Below are positions 4,087-40,571 of a stretch of DNA of 64,000 nt, in pieces (position 1 is the stretch's first letter; the number at the start of each line of letters is the position of its first letter). The notes beneath the pieces are model-generated. The model saw only the letters and a list, made by a program, of their open reading frames with translations. It searched no databases and was not told where the DNA came from. The position numbers and the translations under genes are program-made. This stretch comes from an uncultured Candidatus Saccharibacteria bacterium. GTDB taxonomy: Bacteria; Patescibacteriota; Minisyncoccia; Phycocordibacterales; Phycocordibacteraceae. The DNA is taken from contig CAYMNZ010000001.1 of assembly GCA_964391975.1 (NCBI GenBank), positions 15,280-79,279 of the forward strand, read 5' to 3'.

Positions 4087-4117
4087 TAAAAAGAGCCGCA
4101 GATGCGGCTCTTTTTAT
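4087..4117. terminator. bidirectional Rho-independent terminator after fusA
   Basis: aaaaagagccgca-gat-gcggctctttttatt; a perfect hairpin flanked by an A-run and a T-run; the minus-strand gene ends at 4117. Confidence 0.8.
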
Positions 4118-4671
4118 TATTGTGCCTCTGCTGCTTTTTCTTCGAGGACTCGCGTGGACTCAGTTTGGAGTATGCGGGTAAGGGAGCTGTCGAATTCGTC
4201 TGATGTTATCCCGAAGGTCGAGCGGAACTCGGCGCGCAGTTCGCTTACATAGCGGTACCCGAGGGCGAATGACACCCGTACGTCAGAGGTAGCCGCGTGT
4301 TCGGTCGCTTTAGCGTGGTCAAAGAGCGCGTCGTAATGCTTTTTCACTATCGTGTCGATGATGGGGCTACGGTCATTGGGGTGGAGGCTATCGATGAGCT
4401 TGTGCAACTTGTTTGTCGCCTCACCTTGTCCGAGCTTCGCATTCTGTTCGGCGGCCAACAGGCGTTCAGGCTCGATGGGAGGTACTGAGGTAGCGTTCAC
4501 AATCTGGAGCGCCTCCTCGATTTTCATTCTTTTCTGCTCTGCGGGATTTTTCCCTCCTTGTTCCACTCTGGCGCTCATAGACGTTACTTGGTCAGTTACA
4601 GGGGATAGATACTCAGTGTACACCCACCGTCTTCCTTGGAGGGAGGACAAGATAGACTTTATCCCCGTCAT
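4117..4671 (-). CDS. hypothetical protein between fusA and tuf (opposite strand)
   Basis: 184-aa ORF, no family recognised; bounded by the fusA terminator and a ~210-nt divergent intergenic region upstream of tuf. Confidence 0.5.
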   Translation of the reverse strand: MTGIKSILSSLQGRRWVYTEYLSPVTDQVTSMSARVEQGGKNPAEQKRMKIEEALQIVNATSVPPIEPERLLAAEQNAKLGQGEATNKLHKLIDSLHPNDRSPIIDTIVKKHYDALFDHAKATEHAATSDVRVSFALGYRYVSELRAEFRSTFGITSDEFDSSLTRILQTESTRVLEEKAAEAQ

Positions 4672-6096: not shown

Positions 6097-6453
6097 ATGG
6101 CCACCAAAGCTACCAAGACCCTGAAGAAAGAAGCGTCGGCTCCAACCGAGCCGAAGCTCCGCATCCGGGTCCGCGCCTACGAGCACAAGATTCTCGATCT
6201 CTCGGTAAAGCAGATTATGGACACCGCTAATCGCTTCGAAGCGAAAATCGTTGGCCCCGTTCCGCTCCCGACTGAGATAAAGCGATGGACCGTGAACCGC
6301 TCAACGTTCGTCCACAAGGACGCACGCGAGCAGTTCGAAATGCGCATCCACAAGCGACTCATCGATATCCTCTCCCCGAATCCGAAGGTCATCGAGGCTC
6401 TCACGAACCTCAACCTTCCATCCGGAGTGACGATTGACGTGAAGATGGTCTAA
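6097..6453 (+). CDS. rpsJ: 30S ribosomal protein S10 (with short N-terminal extension)
   Basis: 118 aa; IRVRAYEHKILD...RSTFVHKDAREQFE core; 16 nt after the tuf stop. Confidence 0.92.
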   Translation: MATKATKTLKKEASAPTEPKLRIRVRAYEHKILDLSVKQIMDTANRFEAKIVGPVPLPTEIKRWTVNRSTFVHKDAREQFEMRIHKRLIDILSPNPKVIEALTNLNLPSGVTIDVKMV

Positions 6454-6548: not shown

Positions 6549-6854
6549 ATGGTACGAGAAATTGGAGAAGGCATGCACGACGTCCGTCCACCTCAGAAAG
6601 CGGAGAGGCCGCGCGCGTGGCGCCCGAAGACAGGAGAGGCAATTACCATCACCAAGCGCGGCGGAGGCATCGTTGCACAAGGTCGCCTTGATGCAGACCT
6701 CAACATCATCGATGGCAGACCAGCAGCCTTCCGTATAGGGGGCGCCGCAGAGGACCTTCTCCCAAGCGTGGTGAGTTCAAACCAAGAGGGAAAGAAACTT
6801 GTTGTCGTGACCAAGAAAGGAATCTTTGAGATAAATAAGGAGACCGTTCACTAA
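6549..6854 (+). CDS. hypothetical protein (first of three genes inserted between rpsJ and rplC)
   Basis: 101-aa ORF followed by its own terminator; start may be the internal Met (MHDVRPP, near 6573). Confidence 0.45.
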   Translation: MVREIGEGMHDVRPPQKAERPRAWRPKTGEAITITKRGGGIVAQGRLDADLNIIDGRPAAFRIGGAAEDLLPSVVSSNQEGKKLVVVTKKGIFEINKETVH

Positions 6855-6855
6855 A

Positions 6856-6886
6856 CAACCGCCCCAGAGATGGGGCGGTTTTTGTT
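6856..6886 (+). terminator. Rho-independent terminator
   Basis: aaccgcccc-agaga-tggggcggtttttgtt. Confidence 0.75.
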
Positions 6887-6900
6887 ATACTCTCTTCATC

Positions 6901-7863
6901 ATGTTTGAGCGGAAAAACCCCATTCCCAAGCTGAGCGAGCAACGGAAGCGAGAAAAGGCAAAGTATCGAGATGAGGGGCTCAAAAGGAATGCGAAGGATA
7001 GGCGCGAGCAGCTGTTGTACTCAGATCCCCTTGGCTACCTCGGGGATTTACTCACCGGCAAACTTCCAACCGCTAAACAACTTGGTGAAGAGCTGAAAGC
7101 ACGCGATCAGGAGCGCCTTAAGAAACTAGTGCTAGAGGCGAAAGATGCGGCGCGCATTATGATGCTCGACGATGCGACGAGCTATCGCGCACACGAAATG
7201 GAACACGAGCTTCCGATGGTAGAGCTTGGGGCCTGGCTAGAGGGTGCCCTACGAGAGGGGAAGCTGCCAGATACTATCATTGCTGAGGACGTTACGGGTC
7301 GACCGCTGGCGCAGATATGTCGCACCCTCCTCACGCTCCTGAACAAGAGAATCCATCCCGATGCTGAAAATGTACCAGTTATCTCGTATGCGGTTGGACG
7401 ATATACGTCGCCCACGTTGGCGAAGCAACTCGCCCAGGGCGTGGCACAGAAGCTTGAAAAGCGAGGTGCGCGCAATGTGCTGGTCTGCACCGATGCTGTT
7501 GAGACTGGAAGCTCGATGGGCCCGCTGCTCACTGAAATTGGAGGACAATCGTACTCTCTCGCTCTTATGATAGATAGGATTACTCCACGCGCCGAGACGA
7601 TGATACTAGAACGTACGGAGAAGAATCCGGCCGTGCACATCTCGCTTCACCCAGATATGGATATTGGACAAGATTCAGTACTTATCATGCGTACGCTCGA
7701 GCGTCGGTATAAGAAAAACGCTGATTACAGAGACCTCCTCCTGGTGATAGAAGAGCTAGAGAACCGCCCGTACCGCCTCCAGGCAATTGAAGAGATTGCC
7801 AACGTGCTTTATGAAACCTTCCTCGAACGCCCTGGGGTGCAACAGCTCTTGCCCGCTCAGTAA
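6901..7863 (+). CDS. hypothetical protein with a C-terminal type I phosphoribosyltransferase-like PRPP-binding motif
   Basis: 320 aa; motif NVLVCTDAVETGSSMG resembles the PRTase signature (compare comF in this window: IVVDDVLTTGSTL); ~190-aa N-terminal extension of unknown type. Confidence 0.5.
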   Translation: MFERKNPIPKLSEQRKREKAKYRDEGLKRNAKDRREQLLYSDPLGYLGDLLTGKLPTAKQLGEELKARDQERLKKLVLEAKDAARIMMLDDATSYRAHEMEHELPMVELGAWLEGALREGKLPDTIIAEDVTGRPLAQICRTLLTLLNKRIHPDAENVPVISYAVGRYTSPTLAKQLAQGVAQKLEKRGARNVLVCTDAVETGSSMGPLLTEIGGQSYSLALMIDRITPRAETMILERTEKNPAVHISLHPDMDIGQDSVLIMRTLERRYKKNADYRDLLLVIEELENRPYRLQAIEEIANVLYETFLERPGVQQLLPAQ

Positions 7864-7878
7864 GGGTATACTTTTCGC

Positions 7879-8238
7879 ATGGCTTCTCCAGAAACTCCTA
7901 CGCACTCGGCTAACAAGGACATTCCAACTCTTTCGGTTGCGGCCATTGCTACTGAATACAAAGACATACTCGACCGCTACAATCGGTTCATTGATTCTCA
8001 GATGGTTGCGCTTGGGAAGCCAAAGGAGGTGGTAGAAGAACCCCCTCCGAGCGAACAGGCACGCGGAGAACTGCTCTGGAAGGAGCTTCTCCGGAGGGCG
8101 GTTGCCGGGAACGCCGAAGCCAAGCAGGCCATTATCGAGATTGATGTAGATGATGAGCTCAAAGAGCCTGATGGCTCTCTGAGCAAAGAAACGCTTCAGC
8201 GCCTTCTCGACTCCTCTGACACTCTGGCGGACGGCTAG
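7879..8238 (+). CDS. hypothetical acidic protein
   Basis: 119-aa ORF, co-directional, 15 nt after the preceding gene; no family recognised. Confidence 0.45.
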   Translation: MASPETPTHSANKDIPTLSVAAIATEYKDILDRYNRFIDSQMVALGKPKEVVEEPPPSEQARGELLWKELLRRAVAGNAEAKQAIIEIDVDDELKEPDGSLSKETLQRLLDSSDTLADG

Positions 8239-8356: not shown

Positions 8357-8962
8357 ATGAAATTCATCCTCGCTCGCAAAGACTGCATGACCCAGATCTT
8401 CGATGATCAGGGTATTGTCCACGCCGGAACCATCCTCAAGGTGGTGCCGAACGTCGTCACGCAGGTGAAGGCCAAGGACGGCAAGGACGGCTATGCCGCT
8501 GTCCAGGTAGGAATGGACGCGCAGACTGAGAAGCGCCTCAACAAGCCTCAGTTCGGCAAGGCCTTTAAAGTACTTAAGGAATTCCGCGTTGATGACACTG
8601 CAGGCTTTGAGGTGGGCAACGAGATTACGCTTGATACCTTCGCTCCCGGCGATGGGGTCCGCGTTGTGGGTACCTCCAAGGGTAAGGGCTTCTCGGGTGT
8701 GGTGAAGCGCCATGGTTTCCATGGTGGTCGCCGCTCCCACGGTCAGAAGCACTCTGAGCGCGAGGCAGGTTCCATCGGTGGAGGAGGTCGCGCCGGAGGC
8801 CGTGTGGCTAAGGGTATGCGCATGGCCGGCCGTATGGGTGGAGAGCGCGTTACCGTCACCAACCTCAAGGTGCTTCACATCGACAGCAAGAGCGGCGAGA
8901 TGATTATCTCAGGCGCTGTTCCGGGTCCTCGTGGCTCCGTCGTGGAAATCATTTCCGCATAA
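8357..8962 (+). CDS. rplC: 50S ribosomal protein L3
   Basis: 201 aa; KFILARKDCMTQIFD...GTSKGKGFSGVVKRHGF L3 signature. Confidence 0.95.
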   Translation: MKFILARKDCMTQIFDDQGIVHAGTILKVVPNVVTQVKAKDGKDGYAAVQVGMDAQTEKRLNKPQFGKAFKVLKEFRVDDTAGFEVGNEITLDTFAPGDGVRVVGTSKGKGFSGVVKRHGFHGGRRSHGQKHSEREAGSIGGGGRAGGRVAKGMRMAGRMGGERVTVTNLKVLHIDSKSGEMIISGAVPGPRGSVVEIISA

Positions 8963-10103: not shown

Positions 10104-10946
10104 ATGAAATCCTACAAACCGTACACCAAGAGCCGCCGTGGCATGACCACACTGCCGTACAAGCAGCTTCTTTCCGGTGACCGCCCATTCAAGGCCCTCT
10201 TGAAGGCGAAGAAGGACCAGGCAGGACGCAACTCCCAGGGCCGCGTTACTACGCGCCACCAGGGAGGCGGCCACAAGAAGCGCCTTCGCGATGTCGACTT
10301 CCAGTACAACAAGAAGAACATCCCGGCGAAGGTTGAGACTATCGAGTACGATCCATACCGTACCGGTTTCATCGCGCTTGCGCTCTACGCAGACGGCGCT
10401 CGCCGCTACGTGCTCGCACCTAAGGACCTTAAGGTCGGCGACAGCTTTGTTGTCTCTGAGGACGCACCAGTTAAGACTGGTAACCGCATGCCGCTTGGCA
10501 AGATTCCTACCGGTACCTTCGTGTACAACATCGAGCTCCAGGTTGGAGCCGGCGCACGCCTCGCTCGCTCTGCAGGTAACTATGCAGAAGTCATCGCGCA
10601 TGACGCAGGCTATGCGCAGATCAAGCTTCCTTCGACTGAGGTCCGCAAGGTCTCTGACCTCTGCTGGGCATCCATCGGTGCAGTGGGCAACGAAGAGAGT
10701 CGCCTCGTGAAGTATGGAAAGGCAGGACGCTCTCGTTGGAAGGGTATTCGCCCTACGGTGCGTGGTACGGCTATGAACCCGGTAGATCACCCACACGGAG
10801 GAGGTGAAGGACGTCAGGGTCGTGGTCTCCGTCGTGCAAAGACTATGTGGGGCAAGCCATCCGGCAAGGGACAGAAGACTCGTACGCCGAAGAAGTACTC
10901 GAACTCACACATCGTTTCTCGCCGAAAGGTTGGCAAGAAGGGATAA
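10104..10946 (+). CDS. rplB: 50S ribosomal protein L2
   Basis: 280 aa; GRNSQGRVTTRHQGGGHKK and C-terminal GGGEGRQG motifs. Confidence 0.96.
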   Translation: MKSYKPYTKSRRGMTTLPYKQLLSGDRPFKALLKAKKDQAGRNSQGRVTTRHQGGGHKKRLRDVDFQYNKKNIPAKVETIEYDPYRTGFIALALYADGARRYVLAPKDLKVGDSFVVSEDAPVKTGNRMPLGKIPTGTFVYNIELQVGAGARLARSAGNYAEVIAHDAGYAQIKLPSTEVRKVSDLCWASIGAVGNEESRLVKYGKAGRSRWKGIRPTVRGTAMNPVDHPHGGGEGRQGRGLRRAKTMWGKPSGKGQKTRTPKKYSNSHIVSRRKVGKKG

Positions 10947-11002: not shown

Positions 11003-11206
11003 ATGCCAGCCCCAGAAAAACCAGAGAAACTGCAGAAAAAGAAACCAGAGAAACCAGAGAAACCAGAGAAACCAGAGAAACCAGAGAAACTGCAGAAAAA
11101 GGAATCAGATCCAGTTGAGGAAGTAGATACCTCTAACGAAGACCACTGGTTTGGTAGCGACTCATCAATGGGTCCTCGGTACGATAACGAGAGCGAAGAA
11201 TTTTAA
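11003..11206 (+). CDS. small protein with (PEKPEK)n tandem repeats
   Basis: 67 aa: MPAPEKPEKLQKKKPEKPEKPEKPEKPEKLQKKESDPVEEVDTSNEDHWFGSDSSMGPRYDNESEEF. The ORF-track ORF 10847..11206 overlaps the rplB 3' end and was trimmed to the internal ATG behind the TATAAT box. Own terminators on both sides. Confidence 0.5.
   Translation: MPAPEKPEKLQKKKPEKPEKPEKPEKPEKLQKKESDPVEEVDTSNEDHWFGSDSSMGPRYDNESEEF
11018..11100 (+). repeat. 9-bp tandem repeat (aaaccagag)n with two aaactgcag variants, coding
   Basis: Seen directly: aaaccagag x1, aaactgcag, aaaaag, aaaccagag x5, aaactgcag; encodes PEK/LQK repeats. Confidence 0.9.
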
Positions 11207-11218
11207 GAAGCGGTAGAT

Positions 11219-11250
11219 AAGAACCCTGCAGATGCAGGGTTCTTTCTATT
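11219..11250. terminator. bidirectional terminator between the PEK gene (+) and the DUF3298-like gene (-)
   Basis: agaaccctgca-gat-gcagggttctttctatt. Confidence 0.7.
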
Positions 11251-12049
11251 GGTACTTCGCTTTCAGTATTGCAGAGAGTTCGCTCTTCGGAAGGCGCACT
11301 TCCTGCATTCCGAGCGCCCACGGGCCTACCTGATACGGAGCGAAGATGATAACGAGCGCATTCCCCTCAAGGTAGAAGTTGAGGTAGTTGTCCTCGTCAG
11401 GGGTCGTGCCCGCGTCAATCATGTCCATATTGAGCTCTGACTCGCTTACGCCTGATACCTCTGCAATCTGTGTCACGAGCTTCGCGCGAGAGCTTGATGA
11501 GAGTCGTGCAAGGTAGTCGCTTCCAGGAACGAAGAGGTCTCCGAGCGTGAGTCCCTCACCGGTTTCCTTGTCGAAGGTGAAGGTGCGGTAGTAGGCGTTG
11601 GGGTGCGCGCCAAGGGTATCTGCGTACATGAGATAGACGTACGAGACAGTTGAATCGGAGGTGTGGAGCTCGTACTCCATACCGAAGGCATACTTTCTCT
11701 CACCACCAAGTCCCTGCACCTCAATGTCTTCCGCAGAAAGGGAAAGCAGCTGGTTCTCCTCCTTGAAGGACTCGACTGATATTTCCGCGAACTGCTTCAT
11801 GACCTCAACGGCGTGTGCATCGGCTCCAGCGCCTGCTGACGCCCTGAGTGGGGTCTGATTGGGGTATGCCGCCTCAATCTCCCAATACTGCTCGTTCTCC
11901 CTAATAACCCCTGCTTCCGCCTGTGGCTCTCCTACCTGAGGAGCAGGCACCTCAGGGGCAGGAGTGCTGGCCATATACCAGATAAGGGCGCCCAGGATGA
12001 TAATGATGAGGGCGATACCCCCGATAAGTAGCTTCTTGTTGGTGTCCAT
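11246..12049 (-). CDS. membrane-anchored DUF3298/DUF4163-like protein (RsiV-type C-terminal domain)
   Basis: 267 aa; N-terminal TM helix (LLIGGIALIIIILGALIWYM); C-terminus ...NYLNFYLEGNALVIIFAPYQVGPWALGMQEVRLP matches the DUF3298 motif. Confidence 0.6.
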   Translation of the reverse strand: MDTNKKLLIGGIALIIIILGALIWYMASTPAPEVPAPQVGEPQAEAGVIRENEQYWEIEAAYPNQTPLRASAGAGADAHAVEVMKQFAEISVESFKEENQLLSLSAEDIEVQGLGGERKYAFGMEYELHTSDSTVSYVYLMYADTLGAHPNAYYRTFTFDKETGEGLTLGDLFVPGSDYLARLSSSSRAKLVTQIAEVSGVSESELNMDMIDAGTTPDEDNYLNFYLEGNALVIIFAPYQVGPWALGMQEVRLPKSELSAILKAKYQ

Positions 12050-12170: not shown

Positions 12171-12524
12171 ATGTCTCGCTCCCTCAAGAAAGGACCGTAT
12201 GTGGACGTCAAACTCCTCAAGAAGGTCAAGGACAAGAAACCAGCTTCGGCGGGGGTAATTAAGACATGGGCCCGCAATTCCCAAATCGCACCTGAGTTCG
12301 TCGGCTTCACGTTCGGCGTTCACAACGGAAAGACCTTCGTAGATGTCCTCGTCACCGAGGACATGGTGGGACACCGCCTTGGTGAGTTCTCACCTACCAA
12401 GAAGTTCATCCGCCACGGAGGAAAGATGCAGAAGGAGCTCGAGCAGAAGAAGAAGGACTCTGAGATTGCAGCCGCTAAGGCTTCCAAGGAGCCTGCTGCC
12501 GCAGCCCCTGCCAAGAAGAAATAA
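12171..12524 (+). CDS. rpsS: 30S ribosomal protein S19 (K/A-rich C-terminal extension)
   Basis: 117 aa; [11 protein letters not shown]...[18 protein letters not shown] core plus a ~25-aa tail. Confidence 0.94.
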
Positions 12525-15832: not shown

Positions 15833-16102
15833 ATGGCCAAAAAGTCCCAAATCGCCCGCAACAATAAGCGTATGAAGCTCGTCGCTCAGTACGCTGTTAA
15901 GCGTGCCGAGATGAAGAAAGCAGGGGACTTTGAGGGCCTACAGACGCTTCCGAAGAACTCCTCCCCAGTCAGGGTTAAGAACCGCTGCTCGATTACGGGC
16001 CGTGGTCGCGGGTACCTCAGGGCCTTTGGCCTTTCCCGTATCCAGTTCCGCGAGATGGCCCGCCAGGGCAAGATCCCGGGCGTAAAGAAAGCATCATGGT
16101 AA
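15833..16102 (+). CDS. rpsN: 30S ribosomal protein S14
   Basis: 89 aa; ...[40 protein letters not shown]-terminus. Confidence 0.9.
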
Positions 16103-16491
16103 GCGATCGCGTTGGAGATTTCATAATCCGCCTCAAGAATGCCGGCGCTATCGGCAACACTTCGGTCGTACTCCCACACTCAGGTCACCTTGAGGACATT
16201 GCTAAGAAGCTCCGCGATCTCGGGTTCGTGGCTTCGGTTGATGTTCGCGAGAAGGCAGGCAAGAAGATGCTTGAGGTCGGTCTCGCCTACCACGAGAACG
16301 GCGTCCACAAGATTAACGACGTGAAGCGCATTTCAAAGCCAGGTCGTCGCCTCTACGTATCGAGCCGCACTGCGCACTCGGTAAAGAATGGTCTTGGTGC
16401 ACGCATCATCTCGACTCCGAAAGGCATCCTTGCTGACAAGGAGGCTCGCCAGGTAAAGGTCGGTGGTGAGGAGTTGTTTGAAATCTGGTAA
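16096..16491 (+). CDS. rpsH: 30S ribosomal protein S8
   Basis: 131 aa; overlaps rpsN by 7 nt; S8-like sequence. Confidence 0.9.
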
Positions 16492-16498
16492 TACTTTT

Positions 16499-17035
16499 AT
16501 GGCATCCCGTCTCGCAAAGAAACCAATCGTTATTCCTTCGAAGGTCCAGGTGACCTCGGCTGATGGCGTACTCACCGTTAAGGGTTCGAAGGCAACGCTC
16601 TCTCGCGCAGTGCACACCTCACTTTCTATAGAAGTTACTCCTGAGGGCGTTGAGATTAAGCCAAAGAACAACACGCGCCTTGCGCATGCACTCACTGGTA
16701 CCTTTGCGGCACACCTCAAGACCATGATTAAGGGAGTAGAGGAGCCGTTCAAGAAGAACCTCATTCTTACCGGTGTTGGTTACAAGGTTGAGCTTCAGGG
16801 CAAGGACCTCGTCTTCACCGTTGGCTTCTCGCACAAGGTGACGCTCCCTGTTCCTGAAGGACTCACTGCAGCGGTCGTGAAGAACACGATTACCGTTGAG
16901 GGCTCGGACAAGCAGCAGGTTGGACAGTTCGCTGCTGAAATCCGCGCTATCAAGCCACCGGAGCCATACCTTGGAAAGGGTATCGCCTACGAGGGTGAGG
17001 TCATCCGCCGTAAGCAGGGCAAGAAGGCCGTCTAA
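16499..17035 (+). CDS. rplF: 50S ribosomal protein L6
   Basis: ORF-track ORF 16463..17035 trimmed to the ATG after the rpsH stop ([18 protein letters not shown]...). Confidence 0.9.
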
Positions 17036-17043
17036 TATTTTGT

Positions 17044-17391
17044 ATGCCTAAGACTCTCACCAAAGCTGAATCCCGCATCCGCCGCCACAAGCGGGTACGC
17101 GGCAAGATTAAGGGAACTGATGCGCGCCCACGTCTCGCTATTTTCCGTTCCAACCGCTTCATCAGCGCGCAGATTATTAATGACGACGCGAGCACCACGC
17201 TTGTTGCTGCACACGGTCGCGAATTCCCTGGCCCACTCGGGAAGCAGGCAATCGCGGTTGGTAAAGCAATTGCTGAGCGTGCAGTAGCAAAGGGTGTGAA
17301 GACGATTGTCTTTGATCGCGCTGGCTACGCGTATGCCGCACAGGTGAAGGCACTTGCCGACGCCGCTCGTGAAGGCGGACTTTCTTTCTAG
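17044..17391 (+). CDS. rplR: 50S ribosomal protein L18
   Basis: 115 aa; [19 protein letters not shown]18 signature. Confidence 0.92.
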
Positions 17392-17395
17392 TACT

Positions 17396-17995
17396 ATGAC
17401 CGACACAGCAACTATGGACCCTATCGCACCAACCGACGCTCCGGCAGTCGAGGCAAAGCCTGCAGAGGCTGCTCGTACCGACGCTCCTCAGCGCGGAGGA
17501 CCTCGCGGACGTGGAGGTGACCGCCGTGGCGGAGGCCGCCCTCGTGAGCGCCGTGAGCGCGAGCGAAGCGAGTTCGACCAGGTAACGGCCGACGTGCGCC
17601 GTGTGGCCCGTGTTATGGCCGGAGGTCGCCGTTTCTCCTTCTCCGTCACCATTGTTATCGGTGACCGCAAGGGACGTGTGGGCGTTGGTCTTGGTAAGGG
17701 AGCAGACACTGCGCTCGCTATTGATAAGGCTGTGCGTGACGCGAAGAAGCACCTCGTCACGGTTCCTCGCACCAAGAGCGGCTCCATCCGCCACGATGTA
17801 TCGGTTGTCTACGGCACTACCACTCTTTCCATTATTCCTTCCCCGGGTCGTGGACTTGTCGCTGGCTCTGCAATGCGCACCGTGCTTGAGCTCGCCGGTA
17901 TCGGAGACGTGGTGACGAAGATTCTCACCCGCTCGAAGAACAAGCTCACGATTGCGCGCGCTACCGTTGCTGCACTCAAGCAGCTCAAGGGCTAA
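17396..17995 (+). CDS. rpsE: 30S ribosomal protein S5 (Arg/Gly-rich N-terminal extension)
   Basis: Trimmed to the ATG after the rplR stop; S5 core (RVARVMAGGRRFSFSVTIVIGDRKGRVGVGLGKGAD) preceded by GGPRGRGGDRRGGGRPRERRERE. Confidence 0.92.
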   Translation: MTDTATMDPIAPTDAPAVEAKPAEAARTDAPQRGGPRGRGGDRRGGGRPRERRERERSEFDQVTADVRRVARVMAGGRRFSFSVTIVIGDRKGRVGVGLGKGADTALAIDKAVRDAKKHLVTVPRTKSGSIRHDVSVVYGTTTLSIIPSPGRGLVAGSAMRTVLELAGIGDVVTKILTRSKNKLTIARATVAALKQLKG

Positions 17996-18005
17996 CCTTT
18001 TATTT

Positions 18006-18461
18006 ATGCAGACCAACACACTCAAAGCAAAATCCAAGCGCGTGACATCGATGCGCGTTGGTCGCGGCGGTAAGCGCGGAAAGACCTCTGGTCGTGGTAC
18101 CAAGGGTCAGAAGGCACGCTCTGGTCGCAAGATGCGCCCTGAGATGCGCGACCTCATCAAGAAGATTCCTAAGCTTCGTGGACACGGCAAGAACCGTAGC
18201 CGCACCGTGCGCCTCGACCGCGTGGTCGCAAAGCCAGTGAACCTCGCCGTTCTTGAGGCAGCGTTTGAGGCAGGCGATACGATTACGCCAGCCATCCTCA
18301 TCAAGAAGGGCATCATCTCAACGCGCGGCGGACGCGTTCCGGCAATCAAGATTCTTGGTGCGGGTGAACTCACCAAGAAGCTCTCGATTTCAGGAGTGAG
18401 CTTCTCCGCTACCGCCAAGGCCGCCATCGAAAAGGCAGGTGGCTCCATCCTCAATGGTTAG
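18006..18461 (+). CDS. rplO: 50S ribosomal protein L15
   Basis: Starts 10 nt after the rpsE stop (MQTNTLKAKSKRVTSMRVGRGGKRGKTSGRGTKGQ...). No room for an L30 gene between S5 and L15. Confidence 0.92.
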   Translation: MQTNTLKAKSKRVTSMRVGRGGKRGKTSGRGTKGQKARSGRKMRPEMRDLIKKIPKLRGHGKNRSRTVRLDRVVAKPVNLAVLEAAFEAGDTITPAILIKKGIISTRGGRVPAIKILGAGELTKKLSISGVSFSATAKAAIEKAGGSILNG

Positions 18462-19728
18462 CGAATTCTTCAGGAAAATCTCCCTCGTCGTAACGGACCC
18501 AGTCCTCAGGTTCCGCGTTCTCTTCATCGTTGCCGCGTTTGCTGTTTTCCGTTTCCTCGCAGCTGTTCCGATTCCGGGCGTTAACCCGCTTGCACTTGAG
18601 CAGTTCTTCTCAAACAACCAGTTCCTTGGTCTCTTGAACGTCTTCTCCGGAGGCGGGTTCGAGAACCTTTCTATCGTGATGCTCGGTGTGGGTCCGTACA
18701 TTACGGCATCCATCATCATGCAGCTTGCAACCGTTATTTTCCCAGCCGTTAAGGCTATGTACTCTGAGGAGGGTGAGGCAGGCCGCACCAAGTTCATCGC
18801 TATTTCCCGCGCGCTCACCATTCCGCTCGCTATTCTTCAGGCAGTCGCCTTCCTCTCGCTTCTTGAGACGCAGGGTGTCGTGACCTCGCTCACGCCGTTT
18901 GATTTCGCAGTGAACGTCTTCCTCGTTGCGGCAGGTTCCATGCTCCTCATGTGGATTGGTGAGCTCATCACCGAATTCGGCATTGGTAACGGTGTATCGC
19001 TCATCATCTTCGCAGGCATCATTGCTGGTATTCCTGGCGGCCTCACGCAGATTCTCTACACCGCAACCGCGGCCAACATTCCGGCCTACCTTGGCTTCTT
19101 CATCCTCTCGCTCGCAGCCATCTATGCGGTGGTGTCGGTGTCTGAGGCAGAACGCTCTGTTCCCATTGCCTACGCTCGCCAGGTACGCGGTGCGGCACAT
19201 CAGCAGGGTGCTGCTACCTATCTTCCGATTCGCATTCTCCAGGCAGGGGTGATGCCAATCATCTTCGGTCTCTCGCTCGTGCTCCTTCCACAGGTAGTGC
19301 TTACTGGTCTCTCGGCGGTTGGCGTTGCCGGGATTGATCCTTGGATTGCAGGCTATGCTGCCTTCTCCGCAAACCCATGGCTCCATGGCGCGGTCTACTT
19401 TATCTTCGTGTTCATGTTCACTTTCTTCTACACCTCTATTACGTTCGAGCCACACCGCGTCGCTGAGAACCTCCAGAAGTCTGGTGCCTTCGTTCCAGGT
19501 GTCCGCCCTGGACGCGAGACCGAGACTTACATCGGTAACGTCGTTTCCCGCGTGACCTTCCCGGGCGCTCTCTTCCTCGGTGCCATCGCCGTCGTTCCGT
19601 TTATCGTGCAGGGACTGACCGGCATCACCGCCATCCTCGTTGGTGGTACTGCGCTTATCATTGCCGTGACCGTGGTGCTCGACCTCATTCGCAAGATCGA
19701 CGCGCAGGTTTCGCTCAAAGAATACTAA
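18454..19728 (+). CDS. secY: preprotein translocase subunit SecY
   Basis: ~425 aa polytopic membrane protein with SecY motifs; start could be 18439 (ORF track) or 18454 (MVSEFFRK, overlapping the rplO stop). Confidence 0.93.
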   Translation: MVSEFFRKISLVVTDPVLRFRVLFIVAAFAVFRFLAAVPIPGVNPLALEQFFSNNQFLGLLNVFSGGGFENLSIVMLGVGPYITASIIMQLATVIFPAVKAMYSEEGEAGRTKFIAISRALTIPLAILQAVAFLSLLETQGVVTSLTPFDFAVNVFLVAAGSMLLMWIGELITEFGIGNGVSLIIFAGIIAGIPGGLTQILYTATAANIPAYLGFFILSLAAIYAVVSVSEAERSVPIAYARQVRGAAHQQGAATYLPIRILQAGVMPIIFGLSLVLLPQVVLTGLSAVGVAGIDPWIAGYAAFSANPWLHGAVYFIFVFMFTFFYTSITFEPHRVAENLQKSGAFVPGVRPGRETETYIGNVVSRVTFPGALFLGAIAVVPFIVQGLTGITAILVGGTALIIAVTVVLDLIRKIDAQVSLKEY

Positions 19729-19754
19729 TTCCCCTTGTGCTACAGTAGTGCGGT

Positions 19755-20321
19755 ATGGATTTGAACACAGTACTCCTCATAGGTAAGCCAGGCAGCGGCA
19801 AGGGCACGCAGGCACAGCTCCTTGCCGAGATGACAGGGTTTCAAGTCATCGCCTCAGGCGACCTCTTCCGCGCGCTTATGAAAGAGGATACGGAGGTGGG
19901 TGCCAAGATGCGGGAGGAAATCGAGAAGGGTTTACTCGCTCCTGATTGGTTTGCAATGTACCTCTTCCAGAAGTCGGTGCTCAATCTTCCGTCGACTCAG
20001 GGGGTAATCTTTGACGGCTTTGGTCGTAAGGTGCCTGAGGCCAAAGTAGTGGTTGATGTGCTCACGTGGCTCGGGCGTCCGTTCACGGCAGTGCATGTGA
20101 AGGTCTCAGATGCTGAAATTATTGACCGCCTCGAGAAGCGCAAGGGAGTCTCCGGACGTGCTGACGACCATGCGGTTGAGAAGCGTCTTGAGGAATACCG
20201 TATCTTCACCGAGCCTTCTATTGAAGTGTTCCGCGAAGCCGGAAAGCTCGTTGAGGTGAATGGCGAGGGAGCGGTCGACGCTATTCAGGCAGAGATTCAG
20301 AAAGCACTCAACCTCGGATGA
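19755..20321 (+). CDS. adk: adenylate kinase
   Basis: 188 aa; P-loop LIGKPGSGKGTQA. Confidence 0.93.
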   Translation: MDLNTVLLIGKPGSGKGTQAQLLAEMTGFQVIASGDLFRALMKEDTEVGAKMREEIEKGLLAPDWFAMYLFQKSVLNLPSTQGVIFDGFGRKVPEAKVVVDVLTWLGRPFTAVHVKVSDAEIIDRLEKRKGVSGRADDHAVEKRLEEYRIFTEPSIEVFREAGKLVEVNGEGAVDAIQAEIQKALNLG

Positions 20322-21094
20322 TTGTTCGCACACCAGAAGAGCGGGAGGGAATCATTGAAGCAGGACGCAGGCTTGGCGTGGTGCTCTCTGAGGTTGCCAA
20401 AATTGTTGCGCCGGGCGTTTCAACCGCTGAGCTCGATATCCTTGCAGAGAAGTTAATTCTCGAAGGAGGAGATACTCCTGCCTTCCTTGATTACACGCCA
20501 GAGCGTGGAGTGCGTCCGTATCCAGCGACACTGTGCGTTTCAATAAATGATGAGGTTGTTCACGGCATACCAAACGAAGCGCCGCGTATTCTCGAAGAGG
20601 GAGACATCGTCGCGCTTGATCTTGGGTTGATTCACAAGGGGTTCGTAACCGACTCTGCCCTTACGGTTGCCGTAGGGGAAGTTAGTGACGAGGCGAAGCG
20701 GCTTATGCAGGTGACACAGAAATCACTTGAAGACGCTATTGCGGCAGCTCGTCCTGGCAATCGCATTGGCGACATATCGCACGCTACTGAAGCTGCCTTT
20801 AAGGGAAGCGGGTTCTCGGTCGTAAAGGTGCTTGGTGGGCACGGTGTGGGCTCGGCAGTGCATGAAGAGCCGTGGATTAGTAACGTAGGTACGCCTGGTA
20901 CCGGACCTGAGATTGTGGAGGGTATGGTGCTTGCGCTTGAGCCGATTGCCAACGCAGGAAAGGCCTCAGTCATCCTTGCTCCCGATGGCTACACGTATCG
21001 CTCCAAGGATGGCTCCATTTCTGCTCACTTCGAGCACACTATTTTGGTAGAGAAGGAGAAGACCCTTGTGATTACGAGGCGCCCTGGCGAGTAA
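20318..21094 (+). CDS. map: type I methionine aminopeptidase
   Basis: 258 aa; ATGA overlap with adk; pita-bread fold motifs (DxxALD, HGVG, EPI). Confidence 0.92.
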   Translation: MIVRTPEEREGIIEAGRRLGVVLSEVAKIVAPGVSTAELDILAEKLILEGGDTPAFLDYTPERGVRPYPATLCVSINDEVVHGIPNEAPRILEEGDIVALDLGLIHKGFVTDSALTVAVGEVSDEAKRLMQVTQKSLEDAIAAARPGNRIGDISHATEAAFKGSGFSVVKVLGGHGVGSAVHEEPWISNVGTPGTGPEIVEGMVLALEPIANAGKASVILAPDGYTYRSKDGSISAHFEHTILVEKEKTLVITRRPGE

Positions 21095-21154
21095 CAGGAT
21101 TTAGGCTATACTCCCCACATACAAGCGCGAAAGCGATTTTTTACTATAGGAATC

Positions 21155-21763
21155 ATGCCTACCCCACACCCAAAGAAAGAGCGTACGTTCGTGATGATTA
21201 AGCCTGACGGTGTTCAGCGCGGACTCGTTGGCGAGATTGTTCGTCGCTTCGAGAACACGGGCCTCAAGCTCGTCTACCTCAAGCTCTCTATGCTCGATGA
21301 AACAAAGCTCTGGGAGCACTACGGCAAAGATGACGTATGGTTTGAGAAGAAGGGTGCTGGCATCATGGCCGACCGCCAAGCAGCAGGACTTCCGGTAGAG
21401 AAGGAAGCACTTGAGTACGGTAAGGACATCATTCGTGCACTCGTGACGTTCATGACCGCGGGTCCGGTTGTCATGATGGTGATTGAAGGCAACCAATCAG
21501 TTGCAGTGGTGAAGAAGCTTGTGGGGGGCACGGAGCCGGCAACGTCTGATGTGGGTACCATTCGTGGTGACCTCACGGTGGACTCCTACTCCATTGCAGC
21601 AATTGATGACCGCGCAGTACGCAACCTCATTCACTGCTCTGATCAGCCTTCGGAGGCTGAGCGCGAGATTGCGCTTTGGCTCCCTGGAGCAGAAGTACTC
21701 AATTACCGCCTCGTTGGCGAACAGATTCTCTACGACGTTAACCTCGACGGTATTCTCGAATAG
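21155..21763 (+). CDS. ndk: nucleoside-diphosphate kinase (longer than typical)
   Basis: 202 aa; ERTFVMIKPDGVQRGLVGEIV and NLIHCSD (catalytic His). Confidence 0.85.
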   Translation: MPTPHPKKERTFVMIKPDGVQRGLVGEIVRRFENTGLKLVYLKLSMLDETKLWEHYGKDDVWFEKKGAGIMADRQAAGLPVEKEALEYGKDIIRALVTFMTAGPVVMMVIEGNQSVAVVKKLVGGTEPATSDVGTIRGDLTVDSYSIAAIDDRAVRNLIHCSDQPSEAEREIALWLPGAEVLNYRLVGEQILYDVNLDGILE

Positions 21764-21796
21764 CTAAAAAACCGCCGTTAGTGATATTCTCACTCT

Positions 21797-22102
21797 ATGG
21801 CTACAGCAAGGATTTCTGGCGGCACCGTACACACCCTGCCGTCTGATGTGCGAAAGGTCTTGGCTGCTGATGCTAAGGCACGTGCGGCATGGGAGAGCCT
21901 GACGCCGCTTGCACGCAATGAATGGATCTGTTGGACCATTTCCGTTAAAAAAGCAGAGACACGGAAGGACCATGTACGACGAGTACGGAGTCAACTGAAA
22001 GAAGGGAAGCGTCGCCCGTGCTGCTGGATTGGGTGTATTCACCGTCCGGATAAGCCGCTGAGTCCATCGGTGAAAGGGGTGCTCAGTAAACGAAGGAAAT
22101 AA
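21797..22102 (+). CDS. YdeI/OmpD-associated family (DUF1905-like) small protein
   Basis: 101 aa; ...VRKVLAADAKARAAWESLTPLARNEWICWTISVKKAETR resembles the YdeI family. Confidence 0.5.
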   Translation: MATARISGGTVHTLPSDVRKVLAADAKARAAWESLTPLARNEWICWTISVKKAETRKDHVRRVRSQLKEGKRRPCCWIGCIHRPDKPLSPSVKGVLSKRRK

Positions 22103-22296
22103 AGGCGATTGCGGTATCCACATGACTTTCATGGAGGAGGAGTATACTTATACATGGAGCCATTCCTTGAAACGCAACTTACTTTCCCTACGGGAGTCTT
22201 ATATCTACGCACGATAGTGAACTTTGTTCCGATTCGAGCGATGCGGACACCCACTTGGCACTATCGAGTTGCCAAACGGGAATGGCTCTTCGAAAG

Positions 22297-22322
22297 AATC
22301 CCGCTCGGCGGGATTTTCTCGT
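22297..22322 (+). terminator. hairpin plus T-tract at the end of a ~230-nt structured intergenic RNA candidate
   Basis: aatcccgc-tcgg-gcgggattttctcg. Confidence 0.45.
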
Positions 22323-22337
22323 GCTAAAGTGGTTTCT

Positions 22338-22697
22338 ATGCGGATTCGCTGGCTCCTTCTCGCGCTCGCCTTGAGCGCGCTTCTGCTCTCTCTCCATCTC
22401 TGGGGTACGGCAGAGTTTTTGTACTGGAAGTTCGTATGGTTCGACAGTCCGATGCATCTCTTGGGAGGAATCACACTTGGCGTGTTCGTTGCTGCGTTCT
22501 TGAACGCTCCCCAGCCTGCTAAATTTTATGCGCTCATCATCGTGCTCATTGTCGGGTGGGAGGTATTTGAGTTCTTCCTCGGTTCCCCACGCAAGGAGAA
22601 TTATGGGTTTGATACCGCACTCGATCTCTTTCTCGGTCTGCTTGGTGCGTCACTTGCGTATTACTCCGCCCGACGGTCACTATGGCGCTCCGAGTAA
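22338..22697 (+). CDS. small multi-pass membrane protein (unassigned family)
   Basis: Trimmed from 22224 to MRIRWLLLALALSALLL...; three or four hydrophobic helices. Confidence 0.5.
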   Translation: MRIRWLLLALALSALLLSLHLWGTAEFLYWKFVWFDSPMHLLGGITLGVFVAAFLNAPQPAKFYALIIVLIVGWEVFEFFLGSPRKENYGFDTALDLFLGLLGASLAYYSARRSLWRSE

Positions 22698-24091
22698 CTT
22701 TCTACGGTGGAGCGGGCACCGTCACAGGCTCTAATTTTCTTGTTGAGAGTGGAGCGAGCAAAGTGCTTGTCGACTGTGGAATTGAACAAGGAAAAGATTA
22801 TTGTGAATCCTGTTCATATGACCCATTTCCGTACGAGCCTTCAAGTATTAATGCGCTCGTGATAACGCACGCGCATCTCGACCACATCGGACGCGCACCA
22901 CGTTTGGTAAAAGAAGGATTCGCAGGCCCCGTGTACATGACGGCTCCCACGCGCGATATCGCAGAGGCAATGCTTCACGACAGTGCTGACATCCTCGCGC
23001 AGAATGCAGAAGCGCGCGACCTTGCACCGCTCTACCTGCAGGAACATGTGACGAAGTTTCTTTCACTCATTAAGGTGATTGAGTACCGCACAGAAACGAA
23101 GCTCACCGATGACCTCTCTGTGTATTTGCGAGACACTGGCCACATTCTTGGTGGGGCGAGTGTGCGGTTCGTTGATAAGGAAGGTGTGTCATTTGCCTTC
23201 ACAAGCGACATCGGGAACTCCCCAACGCCTCTGCTGCCGGACGCAGAGCCCATTACGGACGCAGATGCTATCGCCATTGAAAGCGTCTACGGCGACCGCT
23301 TGAATCCTGAGAAGGTGCATCGGGTAGAGAAGTTTAGGGATACGCTTAAGAGCGCACTTGCTCGAGGTGGCCCCATCCTTATTCCTTCGTTCTCCATTGA
23401 GCGCACTCAGCTGATGCTCTATGAGCTCTCGAACCTCATGGAAGCAGGGGAGCTGCCGCAGGTGCCCGTCTTCCTTGATTCGCCTTTGGCTATTGAGATT
23501 ACCAACATCTACCGCAAGCACGGCGCGAAGTTCTTTAAGGACACCGCCCAGGAAGAGCTTAAGCGTGAGCACGACCTCTTTAACTTCCCGTTCCTGCGGA
23601 TGACGAAGTCCCGGGAGGAGTCTATGAGTATTGCGGAGGTGAAGGACCCAAAGATTATCATTGCGGGCGCGGGCATGAGTCACGGTGGCCGCATTGGGAA
23701 GTGGGAGCACCGCTACCTCCCAGACCCCAAGACCACTCTCATCATGGTGGGGTATCAGGCACCAGGCAGTCCTGGGCGCATGCTCCAGGACGGCGCTAAG
23801 AAGGTGCGCATTGATCATCGTGATGTCACCGTGCGTGGACACATTGAGACGCTACATGGCTGGTCCGGACACGCGGATAGAGATGGGCTCCTCAAGTTTG
23901 CAGAAGGCTGCCTGCCTCGGACAAAGAACTTTTTCGTAACGCTCGGAGAGCCGTCGTCTGCGCGCTTTCTTGCCCAACGCATTCACGACTTCCTCGGGAC
24001 ACGTGCGATTGTGCCAGGGAAGGGGGACGTGTGGGAGGTGACCAAGGAAGGTGTGAAAAGGATAGAGAGTCAGAAGGGATTTGAATCCTAG
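22682..24091 (+). CDS. beta-CASP family MBL-fold ribonuclease (RNase J / CPSF-like)
   Basis: 469 aa; HAHLDHIG metallo-beta-lactamase motif 2 near the N-terminus and a beta-CASP-length C-terminal half. Confidence 0.75.
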   Translation: MALRVTFYGGAGTVTGSNFLVESGASKVLVDCGIEQGKDYCESCSYDPFPYEPSSINALVITHAHLDHIGRAPRLVKEGFAGPVYMTAPTRDIAEAMLHDSADILAQNAEARDLAPLYLQEHVTKFLSLIKVIEYRTETKLTDDLSVYLRDTGHILGGASVRFVDKEGVSFAFTSDIGNSPTPLLPDAEPITDADAIAIESVYGDRLNPEKVHRVEKFRDTLKSALARGGPILIPSFSIERTQLMLYELSNLMEAGELPQVPVFLDSPLAIEITNIYRKHGAKFFKDTAQEELKREHDLFNFPFLRMTKSREESMSIAEVKDPKIIIAGAGMSHGGRIGKWEHRYLPDPKTTLIMVGYQAPGSPGRMLQDGAKKVRIDHRDVTVRGHIETLHGWSGHADRDGLLKFAEGCLPRTKNFFVTLGEPSSARFLAQRIHDFLGTRAIVPGKGDVWEVTKEGVKRIESQKGFES

Positions 24092-24120
24092 TCAGCAGCG
24101 TTTGTAGTACAGTACGAGGA

Positions 24121-24600
24121 ATGGAAGAACGTTTTGAATCATCCCCTAAACCTACGACCGCTACCATTGCAGGGAAAGACCTGCTTCGTCGCATTGTAAT
24201 CAACGGGAGGCCTGACCCAAGGTTTTTACCCTTAAAAGAAGGAGGCGTATTCCACTATAGTCCACTCGTACCGTTTCTTGAGGAAGTTGATCAGAAAAAT
24301 ATCTACTACTCAATTGTTGAAGAAAGTGGGACCATTGTCGCACTTATTGAATTGGTTCAAAATCCTCACATAGATGCAGAATTATTTGCCGAAACCGCCA
24401 GTGTTGATATAAATCTTCAAGGGCAAAAACTATCTGAACCACTTCTGCGTGAGATGTTTTCCTTTGCAAAGAGTAAAGGAAAAAAACTCAAGATTTCTGA
24501 ATTTACTCTCATGGGTCAGGAGCGATTAGCGCACAAAATTGAGACATTGGCTAAGGAGTATGATGTTCAAGTCTCCCTCAATCAATCCACCCTACGATAA
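24121..24600 (+). CDS. hypothetical protein, possibly GNAT-fold; visibly AT-richer than its surroundings
   Basis: 159 aa; NLQGQKLSEPLLREMFSFAKSKG loosely fits GNAT motif A; many AAA/GAA/TTT codons unlike flanking genes. Confidence 0.4.
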   Translation: MEERFESSPKPTTATIAGKDLLRRIVINGRPDPRFLPLKEGGVFHYSPLVPFLEEVDQKNIYYSIVEESGTIVALIELVQNPHIDAELFAETASVDINLQGQKLSEPLLREMFSFAKSKGKKLKISEFTLMGQERLAHKIETLAKEYDVQVSLNQSTLR

Positions 24601-24646
24601 ATAGGTAGTCCGACCATCGTCCGTCCGCTCAAGGTATAGTTGCAGC

Positions 24647-25894
24647 ATGATTTCGAAACCCCACCATTTTGATGTCATCGTCATAGGAGGAGGGGCTGCA
24701 GGCCTTATGGCAGCTGGCCGTGCGGCAGAGCGCGGTAAGCGCGTCTTGTTGTTTGAGAAGAATCAGAAGGCAGGGGAGAAGCTCCGTATTACGGGAGGAG
24801 GGCGCTGCAATATCACGAATGCAGAGGAGGACACGAAGGCGCTCCTTTCTCACTACGGTTCCGCAGAACCGTTTCTCCATTCCGCATTCTCTGAGTTCGG
24901 TGTGCAAGAAACGTTCAAGTTCTTCGAGCCCCGCAAGCTGCCGCTTAAGGTTGAGGCACGCAAGCGTGCGTTCCCTCAGAGCGAGAAGGCGCCTGATGTC
25001 GTGCGAACACTTGTCTCCTACGTACGGGAGGGGAAGGTAGATGTGCGACTTGGTACGCCAGTGCGGCAGGTCGTTGTTGCGGATGGGAAAGTGGAGAAGA
25101 TAATCGCAAGCGGTGGAGAATTCTTCGCTGACTCCTATATCTTTGCGACTGGCGGCGTGTCACATCCGGAGACTGGTTCCACGGGAGATGGGTTTGGCTG
25201 GCTGCGGGCGCTCGGGCACACGGTGGAAGAGCCAACACCGACCATCGTGCCGCTCAAGGCCAAGGACCCGTGGATACGCTCTTTGGCTGGCAAATCACTG
25301 CCTGACGCGAAGATAACGTTCTACTTGGGGACCGAGAAGAAATTCAGTAGTACCGGGACCATTCTTCTAACGCACTTCGGTCTGTCAGGTCCAACGATTC
25401 TCAACAATGCCGGGAAGGTTGCAGACCTGCTGCATGAAGGGCCGGTTACTGCCACCATAGATCTGTATCCTACGTTCAATATCGGAGAGCTGGATACAAA
25501 GTTTCGTGAGCATCTCGACGCACATAAGAACAAGCTTCTGAAGAACGTCGCGCACGGGTTCTTGCCACCAGGAACCGTGGATGTGCTTCTGGCACTGGCG
25601 CCTAGCGTTGACCCAGAGAAGAAAGCACACAGTGTCACGAAGGAAGAGCGCCGCGCACTTGTAGATATGGCGAAGGCGCTTCCGGTCTCTATATCCGGGC
25701 TGATGGGCTTTGACCGTGCAGTAGTTGCTGACGGCGGGGTACGGCTTACCGAAATTGATATGCGCACCATGCGCTCGCTCCGCGCTCCGAATCTATTTGT
25801 GATAGGGGACCTGCTCCATATTCAGCGACCGTCTGGCGGGTACTCGCTCCAGCTCTGCTGGACCACTGGGTATGTGGCGGGGAGCAACGCGTAG
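24647..25894 (+). CDS. HI0933-like (BaiN family) NAD(P)/FAD-dependent oxidoreductase
   Basis: 415 aa; FDVIVIGGGAAGLMAAGRAAERGKRVLLFEKNQKAGEKLRITGGGRCNITN N-terminus is characteristic of the HI0933 family. Confidence 0.8.
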   Translation: MISKPHHFDVIVIGGGAAGLMAAGRAAERGKRVLLFEKNQKAGEKLRITGGGRCNITNAEEDTKALLSHYGSAEPFLHSAFSEFGVQETFKFFEPRKLPLKVEARKRAFPQSEKAPDVVRTLVSYVREGKVDVRLGTPVRQVVVADGKVEKIIASGGEFFADSYIFATGGVSHPETGSTGDGFGWLRALGHTVEEPTPTIVPLKAKDPWIRSLAGKSLPDAKITFYLGTEKKFSSTGTILLTHFGLSGPTILNNAGKVADLLHEGPVTATIDLYPTFNIGELDTKFREHLDAHKNKLLKNVAHGFLPPGTVDVLLALAPSVDPEKKAHSVTKEERRALVDMAKALPVSISGLMGFDRAVVADGGVRLTEIDMRTMRSLRAPNLFVIGDLLHIQRPSGGYSLQLCWTTGYVAGSNA

Positions 25895-26524: not shown

Positions 26525-26547
26525 CCCGCAAGAGGTATACTTGAAGA

Positions 26548-39638: not shown

Positions 39639-40046
39639 CTAGACGCGCCAGCCGCCCAGTATCGCGCCAGTGATAAGAAGCGTGAGGAGTACCGATCCTG
39701 CATTAAGTAAGAGGAGCATCGGTGAATTCGCTTCAAACGCATACAGCGGGCCCAAGACAGCAACGACGAACCCAAGCCAGACAAGTCCTCCGAGCAGCAT
39801 TCCTTGTTGAACGCTTGTATACCCGAGACGCGCCATGAGCCACGCGAGTACTCCTGCGAGTACGAGGTTACCGATAACTTGTAATACGGATGCTTGAAGG
39901 CCGCTCGGTCCTTTCGCAAGTTGCTCGGTTGTTTTTCCCAGCGCTTCTATGTACGGGGCTCGGAAGACGACGAGATACCATAGGGCGCTTACAAGATACG
40001 AGGCGATGGCGGAAACGAGTATAGGTAAAAAGGTCATGATTGGCAT
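39639..40046 (-). CDS. small multi-pass membrane protein
   Basis: ORF-track ORF 39639..40184 trimmed to the internal Met (MPIMTFLPIL...) because its N-terminus would overlap the tmRNA 3' end and terminator. Confidence 0.45.
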   Translation of the reverse strand: MPIMTFLPILVSAIASYLVSALWYLVVFRAPYIEALGKTTEQLAKGPSGLQASVLQVIGNLVLAGVLAWLMARLGYTSVQQGMLLGGLVWLGFVVAVLGPLYAFEANSPMLLLLNAGSVLLTLLITGAILGGWRV

Positions 40047-40080
40047 AGAACTGCATAGTGGTATGGAGCAAATGAAGAGG

Positions 40081-40113
40081 CAATTAAAATACTCCGCATC
40101 ACTGCGGAGTATT
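40081..40113 (-). terminator. terminator immediately 3' of tmRNA
   Basis: Minus sense AATACTCCGCA-gtga-TGCGGAGTATT-TTAATTG. Confidence 0.7.
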
Positions 40114-40120
40114 GTTGTGT

Positions 40121-40529
40121 TGTGGAGGTGGGGAGAATTGAACTCCCGTCCGAATCCGTCTTCGACAGCGACTCTACGACGCATAGTCCTGGTTAGAGAC
40201 TGGGGCAGGGTGCGAGGAACCAGAACGAAACCACTCCTGCCTGATCCCTTATTTAGAGAATACGTTCGGGAGGACGTACCTCGATTCCCTAGATGATTCC
40301 ACCCGGGCCGGACACTACGGAAGCTGAGCCGGTCGGATGTCGCTTAGGCGAGGCGTTTATGCAACGCGCGCGTAAGCGAACGCGAAATCGGACTTACTAA
40401 AGTAAGGCGAGATCACGCTTGCAAGAGTGTTCTTGGCAAGTTTGGGTGCCTGCGGGATTAAGGTGGTCAGCAGACTTCCACCGCGTCGCACGTCTGTCAA
40501 AGAGCAGACCGTCAAAACCGGTCACCCCC
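40121..40529 (-). ncRNA. ssrA: tmRNA (transfer-messenger RNA)
   Basis: Minus sense 5' GGGGGTGACCGGTTTTGACGG... (compare E. coli GGGGCUGAUUCUGGAUUCGACGGG) and 3' ...GGACGGGAGTTCAATTCTCCCCACCTCCA (T-arm plus acceptor). The acceptor pairs GGGGGTG/CACCTCC with G3-U70; CCA not encoded; directly downstream of smpB. Confidence 0.85.
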
Positions 40530-40571
40530 GGAAAGGGCATTCTAGCTCGAGAACGCACTTTCCGGGAGCGG

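Follow-up and report, generated by a model that had tools for sequence, protein, structure and literature searches.

In the Gram-positive-type S10-spc-alpha gene cluster, whose order in Bacillus subtilis is ...rpsE-rpmD-rplO-secY-adk-map-infA-rpmJ-rpsM-rpsK-rpoA-rplQ, the gene for ribosomal protein L30 (rpmD; protein uL30) lies between those for S5 (rpsE) and L15 (rplO), and the genes of the alpha operon follow map. The Escherichia coli record likewise has a 180-nucleotide (nt) rpmD gene in the interval between rpsE and rplO, and in that record adk and map are not located after secY. L30 is a surface-located, late-assembling ribosomal protein, and repeated losses of it have occurred, in Mollicutes, Halanaerobiales, a number of endosymbionts (Blattabacterium, Portiera) and Neorickettsia (Nikolaeva et al., bioRxiv 10.1101/2021.01.31.429008). 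For the Candidate Phyla Radiation (CPR, or Patescibacteria), Tsurumaki et al. 2022 (bioRxiv 10.1101/2022.01.07.475337) state, citing Brown et al. 2015, that all members lack L30, and report the protein in none of the surveyed genomes, of which 69 were complete and 828 were drafts; S5 and L15 are adjacent in CPR genomes, and an anti-Shine-Dalgarno motif was detected in only 47.8% of Parcubacteria (Tsurumaki et al.). The literature we searched holds no account of what follows map in CPR or of where the CPR alpha operon lies, and gene order downstream of map in this group may be undocumented. Here we describe the spc-type cluster in a 64-kb stretch of DNA (the window) in which rpmD is missing between rpsE and rplO and map is followed by ndk. 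We are confident of the following explanation as a whole: the DNA belongs to a small-genome member of the Paceibacteria, its spc cluster lacks rpmD through ancestral loss of uL30, the alpha operon lies elsewhere, and map is followed by an ndk neighbourhood conserved across the clade.

The evidence begins with the junction itself. The S5 gene (rpsE, 199 amino acids (aa), 17396-17995, plus strand; Pfam S5_N 4.5e-21, S5_C 3.2e-16) ends in a TAA stop codon at 17993-17995, and the ATG of the L15 gene (rplO, 151 aa, 18006-18461, plus strand; Ribosomal_L27A 3e-16) stands at 18006. Read directly from the sequence, the gap at the usual site of rpmD is exactly 10 nt, CCTTTTATTT (17996-18005), and there is therefore no space for rpmD. 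E. coli L15 aligns with the rplO product over its full length, and the S5 and L15 domains span both proteins, so that neither includes a fused L30 domain. At its N-terminus the S5 protein is also extended by about 50-60 aa (17396-17570), a stretch rich in Arg, Gly and Glu (...RGGPRGRGGDRRGGGRPRERRERERSE...) and without counterpart in E. coli S5, whose tblastn alignment begins at 17570. On the 5' side lies rplR (L18; 17044-17391, plus strand), called Ribosomal_L18p in identical metagenome contigs. On the 3' side, all on the plus strand, come secY (424 aa, 18454-19728 by gene call, overlapping the rplO stop by 8 nt; SecY 1.7e-91), adk (adenylate kinase, 19755-20321; ADK 6.1e-29) and map (methionine aminopeptidase, 20318-21094; Peptidase_M24 6.4e-43), the final gene of the spc-type string.

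The order L18-S5-(...)-L15-SecY-Adk-Map, including adk and map after secY, is that of the Gram-positive-type cluster. The locus differs from that type in the absence of rpmD, in the absence of infA-rpmJ-rpsM-rpsK-rpoA-rplQ from the window and its flanks, and in an interrupted S10 part, where three open reading frames (ORFs) separate rpsJ from rplC and an antisense DUF3298 gene stands between rplB and rpsS. The canonical S10-spc-alpha superoperon, with rpmD between rpsE and rplO, is thus not what stands here. Compared with the published CPR spc operon we find no essential difference: rplO follows rpsE without rpmD, the genome is small, Shine-Dalgarno (SD) sequences are not used (as in part of the Parcubacteria), and the affiliation is with Parcubacteria/Paceibacteria. 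A first-pass annotation of this DNA, made from the sequence alone, had placed 10 nt and no rpmD between rpsE and rplO, had called L30 loss a hallmark of CPR/Patescibacteria, and had allowed that some other lineages lack the protein too. Sequence reading and a Pfam scan of the ORFs confirm the first of these claims, together with every gene that the annotation named; the published statements on CPR uphold the second, and the losses listed by Nikolaeva et al. the third. The absence of L30 here is an already known CPR trait, an instance of a published pattern.

L30 and the products of the alpha operon were sought by tblastn in all six frames of the window, with L30, L36, S13, S11, S4, RpoA and L17 from the E. 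coli record as queries, together with E. coli IF1 and two further L30 sequences. In the 64 kb, L30, IF1, L36, S13, S11, S4, RpoA and L17 gave chance-level matches only; the positive controls, E. coli S5 and L15, were recovered at 1.5e-24 and 1.7e-9. One match to E. coli L30 (25166-25246, E = 0.02) lies in frame within a flavoprotein gene (24647-25894) and was treated as chance. Pfam scans that covered practically every other called gene of the window, as well as its unassigned small ORFs, returned none of these families, and none of the same proteins was found in the approximately 10 kb past each window end. The upstream flank (10 kb, reached from S7) carries type IV secretion-like genes 5' of rpsL, with neither rpoBC nor an alpha operon; the downstream flank (about 10 kb, reached from the 185-aa protein at 61959-62516) carries type IV pilus genes and no alpha operon. 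As neither window nor flanks contain it, the alpha operon must lie at a distance exceeding 10 kb on the upstream side of the window, or about 8.5 kb on its downstream side.

Both features recur among related genomes. A search of GTDB in which a single genome represented each species yielded 80 relatives with SecY 54-98% identical to that of the window. The S5-L15 spacer was measured at 81 loci, six from the same strain and 75 from these relatives; its median is 10 nt, and at 77 of the 81 loci it does not exceed 48 nt, while six-frame translation of the four wider gaps (111-276 nt) gave no L30-like ORF. Within 10 kb on either side of secY in the 80 relatives, tblastn returned no match to L30, IF1, L36, S13, S11, S4, RpoA or L17; E. 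coli S5 and L15 were detected in most of them by the same search. The block (infA-)rpmJ-rpsM-rpsK-rpsD-rpoA-rplQ is accordingly not found 3' of secY-adk-map in the window, in its flanks or in any of the 80 relatives. What does follow map is, as a rule, ndk: it lies 3' of map in 61 of the 71 relatives that have map, within 700 nt in 42 of them and in all of these on the same strand, and a beta-CASP gene follows ndk in 47 relatives. In 16 relatives map and ndk are separated by 2-6.6 kb of unrelated genes. Four of the gaps of 3-6.6 kb were inspected as possible sites of the alpha operon, and this was rejected, as what they contain is an ORF of about 940-1415 aa together with GARS-like, GIY-YIG-like and further genes.

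The first-pass annotation had seen in ndk and a YdeI-like gene a replacement for the alpha block. That the alpha operon does not follow map, and that both genes are real, stands, with the refinement that the map-ndk arrangement is found across the clade and is no replacement peculiar to this genome. Map followed by ndk is an old clade-wide synteny, ordinary for the lineage. The map-ndk-beta-CASP neighbourhood and the detached alpha operon are both clade-wide traits, and amount to a modest difference in gene order.

The ndk gene (nucleoside diphosphate kinase, 202 aa, 21155-21763, plus strand) has a Pfam NDK match of 9.6e-37, and with 126.3 bits stands well above the gathering score of 27 for the profile, PF00334. 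It encodes a long form in which about 35-50 aa are inserted internally and which Pfam matches in two stretches, and the relatives share this form of about 200 aa. The translation carries the catalytic-histidine motif as NLIHCSD, corresponding to the canonical NxxHGSD, with HCSD in place of HGSD. Public assemblies call the start at 21194, 13 codons too late; the start at 21155, given already in the first-pass annotation, is preferred because the N-terminus MPTPHPKKERTF matches the MPHPKKERTF of the relatives. The YdeI/OmdA-like gene that comes next (101 aa, 21797-22102, plus strand) is uncalled in public assemblies; its match to PF13376 (OmdA, 6.9e-16) reaches 58.4 bits against a cut-off of 25.6 and covers 58 of the 60 profile positions, which bears out the earlier identification. 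The plus-strand frame is 93% conserved as against 71% for the minus-strand frame (locus L008), and the minus-strand ORF at 21764-22132, without a Pfam match and less conserved, was rejected as the YdeI-like gene. The gene is restricted to the strain of the window and the nearest species and is absent from the other relatives, and is therefore a recent insertion. Beyond it lie a small membrane protein (22338-22697, plus strand; gene call, weak DUF2238 match), which has tblastn matches in 30 loci and keeps its place behind ndk in part of the clade, and a beta-CASP/RMMBL protein of the metallo-beta-lactamase fold (22682-24091, plus strand; Beta-Casp 4.9e-31, Lactamase_B 2.4e-12, RMMBL 6.2e-12), whose combination of domains suggests an RNase J/CPSF-like ribonuclease.

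How these genes are expressed bears on where the spc unit ends. The SD cores GGAG, GAGG and AGGA, counted at -20 to -4, precede 12 of 76 genes against a background of 16.2%; there is no enrichment, in agreement with the SD-less starts noted at first pass. TANNNT hexamers starting at -20 to -10, by contrast, precede 34 of 81 genes against a background of 7.7%, with a peak at -14 to -12. In the subset whose upstream spacer is 25 nt or longer, which avoids the confounding effect of upstream stop codons, 24 of 42 genes (57%) have the hexamer against the same background (p ~2e-16). In front of adk there is an extended -10-like box, TGcTACAGT (19738-19746). The spacer between map and ndk (21095-21154, plus strand) has the hexamers TATACT (21107-21112) and TACTAT (21142-21147), the latter ending 7 nt before the ndk ATG, as well as a minimal GC hairpin with a T-run; further TANNNT boxes stand, for example, at 24633-24638 and 26534-26539. 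Among the relatives, TANNNT is present at the corresponding distance before adk in 56 of 70 cases and before ndk in 41 of 61, compared with 16 of 80 for secY. A -10 box about 7 nt 5' of the ATG is a signature of leaderless or near-leaderless mRNAs that is established in other bacteria. The pattern suggests widespread leaderless or very short-leader mRNAs with SD-independent initiation in this Parcubacterium, and in the literature searched we found no description of a pattern of this type for Parcubacteria. Given the -10-like boxes about 7 nt before the ATGs of adk and ndk, the string is probably made up of several units with leaderless or very short leaders, and adk may have a transcription start of its own.

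From these signals we read the spc-type unit as probably ending at map, with ndk as a separately transcribed, conserved neighbour. The strongest competing view is that ndk and the genes after it are new 3' members of the spc unit, co-transcribed with secY-adk-map and functionally replacing the alpha operon in its position. The short same-strand distance from map to ndk in 42 relatives is what such a unit would look like, but the TACTAT box 7 nt before the ndk ATG, the TANNNT box equally placed in 41 of 61 relatives, the short GC hairpin and T-run found between map and ndk in many relatives, and the kilobases of unrelated genes that part the two in 16 others make co-transcription rather unlikely.

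Far less probable is that rpmD has moved rather than been lost, and that an L30 gene lies outside the approximately 84 kb examined, that is, the window with a flank of about 10 kb at either end. Relocation does occur in this genome, where further portions of the classical superoperon, the alpha operon and rpoBC, have plainly been displaced; yet the canonical site is without L30 in all 81 related loci, and the published surveys record no L30 in any of 69 complete CPR genomes and 828 draft ones. We infer from this literature that rpmD is absent genome-wide in the lineage. As for an assembly or binning artefact, a chimeric join or collapsed region that would have produced both the missing L30 and the map-ndk junction, the source is evidently metagenome-assembled, but six independent metagenome assemblies from different JGI and Logan samples carry identical S5-L15 and/or map-ndk junctions, which therefore are no artefact of assembly, and the gene order is common to dozens of species, so that the chance of such an error is negligible.

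The identity of the organism rests on SecY. The window's SecY is 100% identical to a database protein (P0001) present on ten contigs, the longest of which measures 742 kb. The 119 homologues that come next are 74-84% identical and their names, where given, are Parcubacteria, Paceibacterota, Minisyncoccia or Patescibacteria. The 80 GTDB relatives are labelled mostly Kaiserbacteria, Parcubacteria, Paceibacterota or Patescibacteria, or bear generic names of uncultured metagenome-assembled genomes, and the labels Zambryskibacteria and Taylorbacteria are also among them. Judged by best-hit names, the organism is a member of the Paceibacteria (Parcubacteria/OD1, near Kaiserbacteria) within CPR/Patescibacteria. 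The first-pass annotation had arrived at CPR and a reduced genome; the names of SecY homologues at 74-100% identity agree with the former, and the identical SecY on a 742-kb contig is consistent with the latter, the genome being probably well under 1 Mb. The G+C content here is 51-57%, unlike the low G+C expected in Mollicutes and insect endosymbionts. An origin in one of the other L30-less lineages (Mollicutes, Halanaerobiales, insect endosymbionts or Neorickettsia) is hardly credible: these unrelated groups have lost the same late-assembling protein independently (Nikolaeva et al.), but the window SecY is nearest to Paceibacteria and every named close homologue is from Parcubacteria, Paceibacterota or Patescibacteria.

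We therefore return to ancestral loss of uL30 and a detached alpha operon. Under this explanation uL30, as a surface, late-joining and dispensable protein, would have been lost in the ancestor of the lineage, and it would be because of this loss that the spc-type cluster runs ...rplR-rpsE-rplO-secY-adk-map without rpmD. The ribosome would work without uL30, as the literature and the clade-wide absence at the locus suggest. The block infA-rpmJ-rpsM-rpsK-rpsD-rpoA-rplQ would be unattached to map throughout the clade and would have to sit elsewhere on the chromosome, and map would be followed by ndk, often by the small membrane protein, and then by the beta-CASP protein, a probable ribonuclease. 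Several points weigh against this account. The taxonomy is drawn from best-hit names and not from a tree. Of roughly 740 kb, the DNA examined covers the 64-kb window and some 20 kb of flanks, which leaves room for a relocated or highly divergent rpmD, and the alpha-operon searches in relatives used E. coli queries, without a CPR positive control for those proteins. Promoters and terminators were assigned from motifs only; folding the RNA of the window's map-ndk spacer gave no significant structure (z = -1.3), and a generic scan for sigma-70 promoters and intrinsic terminators over 16000-24500 gave counts at or below the shuffled expectation.

The cluster is embedded in a longer series of genes in which, according to Pfam, rpsL-rpsG, fusA and tuf are followed by the S10-spc string. 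In the window the string rpsJ-rplC-rplD-rplW-rplB-rpsS-rplV is not uninterrupted. Between rpsJ (6097-6453) and rplC (8357-8962) there are three called ORFs of 93, 320 and 119 aa (6573-8238) without a Pfam match, two of which have a TATACT box about 12 nt 5' of the ATG. The normally invariant junction between rplB (10143-10946) and rpsS (12201-12524) contains an inserted 67-aa ORF of Pro/Glu/Lys repeats (11003-11206) and an antisense DUF3298 gene (267 aa, 11246-12049; 2.4e-15). Of 41 relatives, 13 have an antisense DUF3298 gene at this junction, and across the clade the L2 and S19 genes are 92 to 3151 nt apart; the rplB-rpsS junction is therefore a hot spot for insertion. The str part is likewise broken up, with ORFans of 138 aa (plus strand) and 209 aa (minus strand) between rpsG and fusA (754-1837), and one of 168 aa (minus strand) between fusA and tuf (4117-4623). 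A type IV secretion-type cluster with PrgI, TraC-like and VirB4-like genes lies 5' of rpsL (locus L088, 1-9507), in place of rpoB-rpoC. It is conceivable, if doubtful, that the fragmentation of the str-S10-spc-alpha series is linked to SD-independent, largely leaderless expression, the loss of SD-based translational coupling having relaxed selection for intact operons, and that ndk, the membrane protein and the beta-CASP gene form a new conserved module that ends the spc cluster.

Downstream of the S10-spc string the window continues with ndk, OmdA, the beta-CASP protein and M14 peptidases, then infC-rpmI-rplT on the minus strand, and finally a two-component system, smpB and the transfer-messenger RNA (tmRNA) gene, ftsH, recG, purine genes and pilM. 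A gene of the F420-0:gamma-glutamyl ligase (CofE) family (31736-32494, minus strand; 3.7e-42) adjoins a Vut_1 vitamin-uptake transporter; as a cofactor-related gene it is unexpected for a reduced CPR genome. The tmRNA gene (tag ASPKRHPTGSASVVSGPGGII) adjoins smpB (40122-41024), and a DUF1761 ORF (39639-40184) overlaps its 3' end by about 60 nt, for which reason the annotated extent of that ORF is doubtful. ARAGORN predicts a tRNA-Ile with anticodon UAU (43336-43412, minus strand); in bacteria AUA is usually decoded by a CAU tRNA modified with lysidine, and a tRNA-Ile with a UAU anticodon is uncommon. A 935-aa ORF (50004-52811) without a Pfam match, whose N-terminus resembles a signal peptide, probably encodes a large surface protein; by tblastn it is not homologous to the ORFs of about 940 aa that occupy the gap between map and ndk in some relatives.

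For this window, the S5-L15 junction without L30 and the SD-free starts are together diagnostic of CPR (Paceibacteria). The gene order of the clade does not alter the understanding of these systems. That the alpha operon is joined to secY-adk-map in none of some 80 species, and that ndk usually stands there instead, is useful for annotation, for checks on binning and for surveys of operon evolution.

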